The notes: generated from the sequence alone by a model not told the origin. A DNA stretch of 49,093 nucleotides from a virus (IMGVR_UViG_2718218136_000007:1-49093); one strand, 5' to 3'. Positions 40,616 to 43,463 are shown, counted from the first letter of the stretch. Made by a program: numbers and translations.

Positions 40616-41152
40616 ATGTCATTTATCAAAACTTTTTCTGGGAAGCATTTTTATTATGACAGGATAAATAAAGACGACATCGATATTAACGATATCGCGG
40701 TTTCCCTTTCAAATATCTGTCGCTTTGCCGGTCATCTTTCGCACTTCTACAGCGTCGCCCAACATGCGGTTCTTTGCAGCCAGCTGGTGCCGCAGGAATT
40801 TGCTTTTGAAGCGTTAATGCATGATGCAACAGAAGCGTATTGCCAGGACATTCCCGCACCACTGAAACGCCTTCTTCCTGACTATAAACGGATGGAAGAA
40901 AAAATAGACGCCGTAATCCGTGAGAAATACGGGTTACCCCCGGTTATGAGTACACCCGTGAAATATGCCGATCTCATCATGCTGGCAACCGAACGCCGCG
41001 ATCTCGGGCTTGATGATGGCTCTTTCTGGCCTGTACTGGAAGGCATCCCGGCAACAGAGATGTTCAACGTGATTCCACTGGCACCGGGCCATGCCTACGG
41101 GATGTTTATGGAACGTTTTAACGATTTATCGGAGTTACGCAAATGCGCATGA
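40616..41152 (+). CDS. yfdR: HD-domain 5'-deoxynucleotidase YfdR-like
   Basis: 178 aa from ATG 40616 (GGAGA upstream); HD motif region ...SVAQHAV...LMHDATEAY... Confidence 0.75.
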   Translation: MSFIKTFSGKHFYYDRINKDDIDINDIAVSLSNICRFAGHLSHFYSVAQHAVLCSQLVPQEFAFEALMHDATEAYCQDIPAPLKRLLPDYKRMEEKIDAVIREKYGLPPVMSTPVKYADLIMLATERRDLGLDDGSFWPVLEGIPATEMFNVIPLAPGHAYGMFMERFNDLSELRKCA

Positions 41153-41231
41153 ATGTTTTCGAAATGGAAGGGTTTCTTCGCGGGAAATGTGTACCGCGAG
41201 ATCTGAAAGTGAACGAAACAAATGCTGAGTA

Positions 41232-42560
41232 CTGAGAGATCCCCTCATAATTTCCCCAAAGCGTAACCATGTGTGAATAAATTTTGAGCTAGTAGGGTTG
41301 CAGCCACGAGTAAGTCTTCCCTTGTTATTGTGTAGCCAGAATGCCGCAAAACTTCCATGCCTAAGCGAACTGTTGAGAGTACGTTTCGATTTCTGACTGT
41401 GTTAGCCTGGAAGTGCTTGTCCCAACCTTGTTTCTGAGCATGAACGCCCGCAAGCCAACATGTTAGTTGAAGCATCAGGGCGATTAGCAGCATGATATCA
41501 AAACGCTCTGAGCTGCTCGTTCGGCTATGGCGTAGGCCTAGTCCGTAGGCAGGACTTTTCAAGTCTCGGAAGGTTTCTTCAATCTGCATTCGCTTCGAAT
41601 AGATATTAACAAGTTGTTTGGGTGTTCGAATTTCAACAGGTAAGTTAGTTGCTAGAACCCATGGCTCCTTTGCCGACGCTGAGTAGATTTTAGGTGACGG
41701 GTGGTGACAATGAGTCCGTGTCGAGCGCTGATTTTTTCGGCCTTTAGAGCGAGATTTATACAATAGAATTTGGCATGAGATTGGATTGCTTTTAGTCAGC
41801 CTCTTATAGCCTAAAGTCTTTGAGTGACTAGATGACATATCATGTAAGTTGCTGATAGGTTTCCAGTTTTCCGCTCCTAGGTCTGCATATTGTACTTTTC
41901 CTCTTACTCGACTTAACCAGTACCAACCCAGCTTCTCAACGGATTTATACCATGGCACTTTAAAGCCAGCATCACTGACAATGAGCGGTGTGGTGTTACT
42001 CGGTAGAATGCTCGCAAGGTCGGCTAGAAATTGGTCATGAGCTTTCTTTGAACATTGCTCTGAAAGCGGGAACGCTTTCTCATAAAGAGTAACAGAACGA
42101 CCGTGTAGTGCGACTGAAGCTCGCAATACCATAAGTCGTTTTTGCTCACGAATATCAGACCAGTCAACAAGTACAATGGGCATCGTATTGCCCGAACAGA
42201 TAAAGCTAGCATGCCAACGGTATACAGCGAGTCGCTCTTTGTGGAGGTGACGATTACCTAACAATCGGTCGATTCGTTTGATGTTATGTTTTGTTCTCGC
42301 TTTGGTTGGCAGGTTACGGCCAAGTTCGGTAAGAGTGAGAGTTTTACAGTCAAGTAATGCGTGGCAAGCCAACGTTAAGCTGTTGAGTCGTTTTAAGTGT
42401 AATTCGGGGCAGAATTGGTAAAGAGAGTCGTGTAAAATATCGAGTTCGCACATCTTGTTGTCTGATTATTGATTTTTCGCGAAACCATTTGATCATATGA
42501 CAAGATGTGTATCTACCTTAACTTAATGATTTTGATAAAAATCATTAGGGGATTCATCAG
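41232..42560 (-). mobile_element. IS10 (1329 bp) insertion sequence
   Basis: Ends CTGAGAGATCCCCTCATAATTTCCCC (inside end, 41232-) and ...GGGGATTCATCAG (reverse complement of outside end CTGATGAATCCCC, ending 42560); flanked by 9-bp direct repeat TGCTGAGTA. Confidence 0.9.
41245..42453 (-). CDS. tnpA: IS10 transposase (IS4 family)
   Basis: 402 aa, MCELDILHDSLYQFCPELHLKRLNSLTLACHALLDCKTLTLTELGRNLPTKA... characteristic of Tn10/IS10 transposase. Confidence 0.9.
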   Translation of the reverse strand: MCELDILHDSLYQFCPELHLKRLNSLTLACHALLDCKTLTLTELGRNLPTKARTKHNIKRIDRLLGNRHLHKERLAVYRWHASFICSGNTMPIVLVDWSDIREQKRLMVLRASVALHGRSVTLYEKAFPLSEQCSKKAHDQFLADLASILPSNTTPLIVSDAGFKVPWYKSVEKLGWYWLSRVRGKVQYADLGAENWKPISNLHDMSSSHSKTLGYKRLTKSNPISCQILLYKSRSKGRKNQRSTRTHCHHPSPKIYSASAKEPWVLATNLPVEIRTPKQLVNIYSKRMQIEETFRDLKSPAYGLGLRHSRTSSSERFDIMLLIALMLQLTCWLAGVHAQKQGWDKHFQANTVRNRNVLSTVRLGMEVLRHSGYTITREDLLVAATLLAQNLFTHGYALGKL

Positions 42561-42842
42561 TGCTGAGTACCTGGTACGTAAATTCGACGCGCTTGAAGCT
42601 AAATGTGCGGCACTGGAAAACAAAATAATACCAGTGTCAACTGAACTGCCACCAGCAAATGAAAGTGTTCTGTTATTTGATGCTAATGGAGAAGACTGGC
42701 TGATTGGCTGGCGTTCTCTCTGGTACACCTGGGGACAAAAAGAAACCGGAGAATGGCAGTGGACATTTCAGGTCGGGGACCTTGAAAACTTCAATATCAC
42801 TCACTGGGCAGTAATGCCCAAAGCGCCGGAGGCTGGAGCATA

Positions 42843-43463
42843 ATGACCACATTTACCAATAAAGAACTGATTAAAGAAATCAAAGAACGAATCAGCAGCC
42901 TAGAGGTTCGAGACGATATTGAGCGCCGTGCTTATGAAATTGCTCTGGCATCGCTGGAAGAGGAGCCGGTGGCATGGCTGCATTCAGACAATGGCTTAGG
43001 TATTCCGGCAATAACCAGGAGCAAAAACATTGCTGACAGTTGGTTATCAATGGGCTGGTATGTTCAGCCGCTATATATAGCCAAGCCAGTACTGGTGGTG
43101 CCAGATGCTCGTCCGTCTTTAAATAATGGCATAGTCGGTTTTGATGAAGGCTGGAACGCCTGCCGCGCCACCATGCTTCATGGTGCCAAACCTGTAAGCC
43201 AGACTTACAAGTTGAACAAGCTGTCGGGCAACTCTCCGGTAACTCAGGATGGTTGGATAAGCTGTAGTGAGCGAATGCCGAACGATAAACAGTATGTTTG
43301 GTGTTGGGGTAAGTCTTACGGCTGGACTGAGTGCGATACCTTCGAAGGGTATTACGATTGGTCGAGAAACAAATGGTGGGCAGTTACTGACGATGGGGAA
43401 GAACCGGCATCGAAAGTAACCCACTGGATGCCGCTACCGGAGCCACCGCAGGAGGTGAAGTAA
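42843..43463 (+). CDS. DUF551-domain protein
   Basis: 206 aa; C-terminal W-rich DUF551-like motif (WISCSERMPNDKQYVWCW...WMPLPEPP). Confidence 0.55.
   Translation: MTTFTNKELIKEIKERISSLEVRDDIERRAYEIALASLEEEPVAWLHSDNGLGIPAITRSKNIADSWLSMGWYVQPLYIAKPVLVVPDARPSLNNGIVGFDEGWNACRATMLHGAKPVSQTYKLNKLSGNSPVTQDGWISCSERMPNDKQYVWCWGKSYGWTECDTFEGYYDWSRNKWWAVTDDGEEPASKVTHWMPLPEPPQEVK

Follow-up and report, generated by a model that had tools for sequence, protein, structure and literature searches.

We identified a complete IS10 element inside yfdS, a small gene in the early-left region of a lambdoid prophage lying in a 49,093-nucleotide stretch of viral DNA (IMGVR_UViG_2718218136_000007; hereafter the window). 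Almost certainly this is a single intact, apparently transposition-competent IS10 that entered yfdS at codon 30/31 by cut-and-paste transposition, in what is presumably a recent event private to the source strain, and at a site that looks like a hot spot for the element. The event is of an ordinary and already known kind: element, mechanism and type of target are all familiar. The positions of the features discussed are collected in Table 1.

Table 1. Features of the yfdS insertion and of a second insertion sequence in the prophage, numbered from the first nucleotide of the window.
Feature	Position	Strand	Remarks
ISCro1 (IS66 family)	12243-14941		8-bp duplication TCTCCAGC; splits a lambda-type tape-measure gene
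yfdS 5' fragment	41143-41231	+	Codons 1-30; translation MRMNVFEMEGFLRGKCVPRDLKVNETNAEY followed by a stop
Target-site duplication, left copy	41223-41231		9 bp, TGCTGAGTA; abuts IS10 end
Complete IS10	41232-42560	-	1329 bp; inside end at 41232, outside end at 42560
Dam site GATC, inside end	41238-41241		IS10 bp 1320-1323
IS10 transposase gene	41245-42453	-	402 aa; only long ORF within the element
RNA-OUT antisense RNA gene	42446-42515	+	Rfam RF00240; IS10 bp 46-115
Dam site GATC, pIN -10 region	42491-42494		IS10 bp 67-70
Target-site duplication, right copy	42561-42569		9 bp, TGCTGAGTA; abuts IS10 end
yfdS 3' fragment	42570-42843	+	Codons 31-120 and stop; contains the borderline DUF551 region

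The element and its target site

The element, which PGAP names 'IS4-like element ISVsa5 family transposase' (that is, IS10), begins at its left terminus, the inside end, with CTGAGAGATCCCC (read further, CTGAGAGATCCCCTCATAATTTCCCC). The right terminus is the outside end and closes with GGGGATTCATCAG in reverse complement; the longer read of this end is the reverse complement of CTGATGAATCCCCTAATGATTTT. Searches of the window with the outside-end sequence CTGATGAATCCCC and the inside-end sequence CTGAGAGATCCCC found each once, where none is expected by chance. The terminal inverted repeat is imperfect, with 17 of 23 positions matching between the two termini.

A preliminary description had proposed a complete 1329-bp IS10 with both ends and a 402-aa transposase, and comparison with the two copies in plasmid R100 bears this out. 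Taking the copy by tetC/tetD as IS10-Right (IS10R) and the copy by gltS (jemA) as IS10-Left (IS10L), the element aligns without gaps to both, at 99.6% identity to IS10R (5 mismatches) and 99.1% to IS10L (12 mismatches). Of the 15 sites at which the two references differ, 11 have the IS10R base in this element; the other four, which lie closest to the outside end (IS10 bp 24, 25, 27 and 47), have the IS10L base. There is one extra silent change at IS10 bp 203 (position 1127 when counted from the inside end), also present in the copy of E. coli ET12567 discussed below. The element thus shares with the IS10-Right of Tn10 (R100, NC_002134.1 43950-45278) its length, RNA-OUT, Dam sites, inside end and a 9-bp duplication. 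However, it is a solo copy outside Tn10, and four of its five substitutions make the outside end IS10-Left type.

In a megablast search of plasmids 2312 records matched, 1269 of them near full length and 2 at 100% identity. Identical full-length copies are found in these 2 plasmid records and in about 10 E. coli records, from chicken, cattle and human isolates. The allele is a natural circulating mosaic with an IS10R body and an IS10L-type outside end, corresponding to neither R100 copy. The finding adds value in two respects only: mosaic IS10R/IS10L alleles circulate in E. coli, and yfdS contains what looks like a recurrent natural hot spot for IS10, described below.

The transposase gene runs from an ATG at IS10 bp 108 to a stop at bp 1316. 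Its product is identical to the R100 IS10R protein (WP_001339197.1) and four amino acids away from that of IS10L. Residues D97, D161 and E292 are intact, as is the Y285-R288-E292-K299 motif (the IS4-type Y-(2)-R-(3)-E-(6)-K signature), and the protein matches the IS4 family transposase model NF033591 of NCBIfam (404 bits, cutoff 152) and Pfam DDE_Tnp_1. The antisense RNA-OUT covers the entire Rfam model (positions 1-70 of 70) with 98.8 bits against a gathering threshold of 41. It overlaps the ATG of the transposase gene, and it runs from pOUT toward the outside end, hence toward the 3' part of yfdS. The element contains two GATC sequences, both at the canonical IS10 positions, and a regulatory role for both of these Dam sites is well established. 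Every sequence feature for IS10 transposition and its regulation is therefore intact, and the element is apparently competent to transpose.

The element is flanked by a perfect 9-bp direct repeat, TGCTGAGTA; the probability that two given 9-mers match by chance is about 4e-6. The duplication had been described earlier at these same positions, together with a reasonable fit to the target preference of IS10, and both points hold. The repeat agrees with the consensus NGCTNAGCN (GCTNAGC) at five of the six specified positions, the single mismatch lying in one half-site, and it fits the relaxed consensus NPuCNNNGPyN fully (PMC4574204 for both). Once the IS is removed, GCTNAGC is matched perfectly at 8 sites in the window and with one mismatch at 234. 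Within yfdS, TGCTGAGTA is the sole site with at most one mismatch.

We infer the mechanism from established IS10 biology. The transposase would cut TGCTGAGTA, a near-consensus site, with a 9-bp stagger, and repair of the resulting gaps would generate the flanking duplication. The insertion shortens YfdS to 30 residues and cuts off its DUF551-like C-terminal part both from the start codon and from the early-left promoter of the phage. Outward-directed pOUT is now aimed at the yfdS 3' part and, beyond it, at the DUF551 gene and xis.

The interrupted gene and the prophage

Removal of the IS and one repeat, joining 41143-41231 to 42570-42843, restores an uninterrupted ORF of 120 amino acids, as the preliminary description had anticipated; the outer limits it gave, 41143 and 42843, are exactly the start and stop codons of the restored gene. 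The product is identical at 117 of 120 positions to K-12 YfdS (reconstructed from ET12567) and at 119 of 120 to the intact gene of CUVET16-559, a strain with a sister prophage. It aligns along its entire length (1-120 of 120) with phrog_583, a family of unknown function (E = 3.8e-81), and PGAP labels the intact homologue 'YfdS family phage-associated protein' or 'phage protein'. A search of NCBIfam with the restored protein returned no family. Its match to Pfam DUF551 (PF04448) over residues 50-117 is borderline, at 22.0 bits with a cutoff of 22; the neighbouring 206-aa ORF is a clear DUF551 member (64.9 bits).

The genes in this region are ordered yfdP-yfdQ-yfdR-yfdS, followed by the 206-aa DUF551 ORF at 42843-43463, an excisionase gene (xis; phrog_1553) at 43463-43657, Dsr1 and the integrase. 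The yfdP-yfdQ-yfdR-yfdS order, with yfdS after yfdR in the early-left region, is common to the window, CPS-53 of K-12, EC21Z-014 and CUVET16-559. K-12 YfdS likewise has 120 amino acids, but the gene in the window belongs to a different, full-length lambdoid prophage that carries Dsr1.

At the left junction, the first four bases of IS10 supply the last base of codon 30 and a TGA stop. An ATG at 42505 within IS10 starts a chimeric ORF of 112 amino acids in the yfdS frame, and no convincing ribosome-binding site was seen in the sequence inspected upstream of it. We regard this ORF as an annotation by-product. At the identical junctions in ET12567 and EC21Z-014, RefSeq gives the 5' part as a partial 'Eae protein' pseudogene and the chimeric ORF as a 'hypothetical protein'; the insertion explains both calls. 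It makes yfdS a pseudogene, which matters little beyond annotation.

The insertion knocks out yfdS, an accessory, non-essential gene with no known function, and its loss is presumably without phenotypic consequence. The prophage also carries ISCro1, which substantiates the earlier remark that a second, independent IS had entered it. The prophage is defective because ISCro1 sits in the tape-measure gene, and the likely consequence of the IS10 insertion is the loss of an accessory gene in an already crippled prophage. Together the two elements show a Dsr1-carrying prophage decaying in place. The stretch from the IS end to xis was found to lack terminator-like sites that have a good T tract. Since pOUT points rightward and no strong terminator-like site follows it, transcription could read out into the yfdS 3' part and on into the DUF551 gene and xis.

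Empty and occupied sites in related genomes

Of 5426 complete E. coli genomes, 1915 match the 763-nt sequence representing the empty site over 80% or more of its length. When positions 38000-49093 of the window were used as the query, 47 complete E. coli genomes matched at 99.2-100% identity and 88% query coverage. This coverage corresponds to everything but the IS and one repeat, so the site is empty in all 47. In CUVET16-559 the alignment breaks precisely at 41232/42561, and all 361 phage records with a match are empty at the yfdS site. The exact 30-nt left junction had no matches in genome contigs and metagenome contigs. As the site is empty in 47 of 47 sister prophages, the insertion looks private to the source strain among the available sequences and is presumably recent, with which the intactness of the IS10 agrees.

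Junction searches of the E. coli genomes identified just two others with the same junctions, ET12567 and EC21Z-014 (2 of about 1915 with the gene). Both align to the window without gaps over the whole IS and its flanks, and therefore the position and orientation of the insertion are identical in all three. A synthetic junction representing the opposite orientation matched no E. coli genome. Over the 3.7 kb compared, the flanks differ from the window by 47 substitutions in ET12567 and 33 in EC21Z-014. The IS10 copies differ from that of the window at 4 positions (ET12567, IS10R type) and 12 positions (EC21Z-014, IS10L type).

The insertion in ET12567 (NZ_CP045457.1, about 2541982-2543310) has the insertion point, orientation, duplication and transposase protein seen in the window. 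However, it lies in the prophage CPS-53/KplE1 at argW, with torI-dsdC downstream, and has a pure IS10R-type outside end. IS10 occupies at least 40 places in this genome. ET12567 is a K-12 laboratory construct of genotype dam-13::Tn9 zjj-202::Tn10, and dam mutants were reportedly found by Roberts and colleagues in 1985 to be derepressed for IS10 transposition; the dam mutation fits the 40 or more places. EC21Z-014 (NZ_CP101274.1) again shares the insertion point, orientation and duplication. It is a clinical isolate, with the insertion in another prophage adjoining intD, a tRNA-Arg gene and fimZ, and its transposase is the R100 IS10L protein, four amino acids from that of the window. The prophage in the window is itself at prfC/yjjG, as judged from CUVET16-559. 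By these comparisons, the three insertions look independent.

Based on these three occurrences, the TGCTGAGTA site in yfdS looks like a recurrent hot spot for IS10, because the same site and orientation are found in differing prophages and with differing IS10 alleles. In a rough estimate, about 0.06 further insertions would be expected at this site where 2 are observed, assuming about 1500 IS10 insertions in yfdS-bearing genomes, distributed in each genome among some 25,000 sites that have no more than one mismatch. The site thus appears hotter than an average near-consensus site. Target choice by Tn10 is known to depend on flanking context (attributed to Bender and Kleckner, 1992), which agrees with a hot site in yfdS, and TGCTGAGTA may be a natural example of such context-dependent choice. 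Since the gene has been hit repeatedly, by three alleles in three prophage backgrounds, the presence of yfdS::IS10 in different strains cannot be taken to mark common descent. No paper describing yfdS::IS10 was found in the literature searched. On IS10 expansion in ET12567 the search found nothing beyond incidental accounts of IS10 moving into cosmids that had been passed through E. coli (PMC6105854).

It is conceivable that the insertion has been kept by selection in addition to target preference, either because pOUT drives xis and the DUF551 gene, with an effect on prophage excision or on gene expression, or because the lysogen gains from losing YfdS. In all three known insertions RNA-OUT and pOUT point toward the yfdS 3' part and, beyond it, the DUF551 gene and xis, and the stretch up to xis has no good T-tract terminator, as noted above. 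In addition, pOUT reportedly activates adjacent genes (attributed to Simons et al., 1983). However, given the orientation of the first insertion, agreement of all three arises by chance with p = 0.25, which is not significant. Orientation could also be biased in the absence of selection, by an asymmetric target (one half-site perfect, the other imperfect) together with the non-identical ends of IS10. The insertion is moreover rare among genomes with the gene, and the prophage was already defective through ISCro1. We therefore consider selection very unlikely; were it acting, constitutive transcription of the DUF551 and excisionase genes from pOUT, or the loss of YfdS, would alter prophage stability or superinfection behaviour.

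Still less probable is descent of the three alleles from one ancestral insertion that spread between prophages by recombination. The shared position and orientation, the lack of the opposite orientation in the E. coli genomes searched, and a left flank identical in all three over about 142-170 bp would suit such a history. However, the IS alleles differ at 4-12 positions along the element, representing IS10R type, IS10L type and mosaic, and the flanks differ on either side, beginning about 142-170 bp to the left of the duplication and 5 and 71 bp to its right. The three prophages are also at different chromosomal sites (argW, tRNA-Arg/fimZ and prfC/yjjG), and the 47 sister prophages of the window retain the empty site. 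Finally, yfdS is presumably intact in the K-12 parent of ET12567, going by the MG1655 annotation, and on that assumption the ET12567 insertion arose in the laboratory lineage.

Relation to Tn10 and strain history

IS10 flanks Tn10, and 1.3-kb repeats are often misassembled in short-read drafts, but that this copy is an arm of a composite transposon such as Tn10, or an artefact of a collapsed multi-copy repeat, has a negligible probability, as each IS10 end occurs just once in 49 kb and a 9-bp duplication directly flanking one copy, with flanks that rejoin as a perfect ORF matching the empty sites, is the signature of simple insertion and not of misassembly. In Tn10 itself, tetR-tetA(B)-tetCD and jemABC lie between two IS10 copies of inverted orientation; the window contains one IS10, and a search of its 49 kb for further copies found no second IS10 end.

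The preliminary description also suggested that the element may reflect strain history, given the usual association of IS10 with Tn10. This suggestion is weakly supported, because IS10 is widespread, the allele is a mosaic and there is one copy in the window. Among 5426 complete E. coli genomes 1902 (35%) have IS10, and most of its places are chromosomal (4453 of 6576), so that a solo copy is a poor guide to any earlier Tn10. A connection with Tn10 and strain history is accordingly weak, and nothing in the window indicates one specifically. Near full-length copies occur in 1174 of these genomes, and the number of IS10 places per genome has a median of 2 and reaches a maximum of 45.

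Mosaic IS10 alleles and the IS10-yfdS junction

Comparison of the IS10 copy in the window (41232-42560) with those in E. coli ET12567 (L001) and EC21Z-014 (L002), and with Tn10 of R100, revealed that the IS10 alleles mix R100 IS10R and IS10L sequences. The body of the window copy follows IS10R and its outside end, at IS10 bp 24-47, is of the IS10L type; the EC21Z-014 copy is of the IS10L type with the exception of bp 47. These mosaic sequences suggest that natural IS10 copies have undergone recombination or gene conversion with one another.

At the junction, an ORF that starts within the outside end of IS10 reads on, without a change of frame, through the 3' portion of yfdS. 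The same chimeric ORF is found in ET12567 and EC21Z-014, where the RefSeq entries WP_152922408.1 and WP_254815519.1 name it "hypothetical protein". The insertion has probably given rise to this ORF call as an artefact of annotation.

Features of the window prophage and of the IS10-yfdS junction in two other genomes
Feature	Sequence	Position	Strand	Remarks
ISCro1	window	12243-14941		IS66 family; second IS
ISCro1 tnpA	window	12296-12973
ISCro1 tnpC	window	13340-14911
Chimeric ORF	window	42505-42843	+
Chimeric ORF	ET12567	21374-21712 of L001		RefSeq "hypothetical protein"
Chimeric ORF	EC21Z-014	7374-7712 of L002		RefSeq "hypothetical protein"
DUF551 ORF	window	42843-43463	+	206 aa; 3' of yfdS; intact
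Excisionase	window	43463-43657	+
Dsr1	window	43860-47687	-	Anti-phage defence sirtuin, 1275 aa; NCBIfam NF041818, 2057 bits; Pfam SIR2_2
Integrase	window	47870-49093	-

ISCro1, Dsr1 and the forms of the prophage

ISCro1 is flanked by the 8-bp target duplication TCTCCAGC (12235-12242 and 14942-14949) and interrupts a lambda-type tail tape-measure gene, the pieces of which lie at 11132-12334 and 14832-16418 of the window. As this gene is split, the prophage is probably incapable of tail production. The prophage carries Dsr1 as cargo between its excisionase and integrase genes.

The right-hand prophage arm (window 38000-49093) was found in 47 complete E. coli genomes, one of which, CUVET16-559 (NZ_CP150990.1), was used for detailed prophage comparison. 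Its prophage is a remnant of approximately 17 kb located at the prfC/yjjG site, whereas the window holds the 49-kb full-length form. The remnant lacks the structural and lysis genes (window 1315-32683) but retains the immunity region, yfdPQRS, Dsr1 and int. Although the DUF551 ORF is intact in the window, PGAP calls the near-identical CUVET16-559 sequence as two partial pseudogene pieces, which likely reflects inconsistent annotation rather than a real difference.

IS10 load of ET12567

ET12567 (NZ_CP045457.1), a dam- laboratory strain employed for Streptomyces conjugation, has IS10 in at least 40 places, including yfdS and, approximately 20 kb from there, a place adjoining the yfdX pseudogene. 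In practice, this load calls for caution with any DNA that is propagated in ET12567; a cosmid passaged in E. coli has been reported to acquire IS10 by transposition (PMC6105854).
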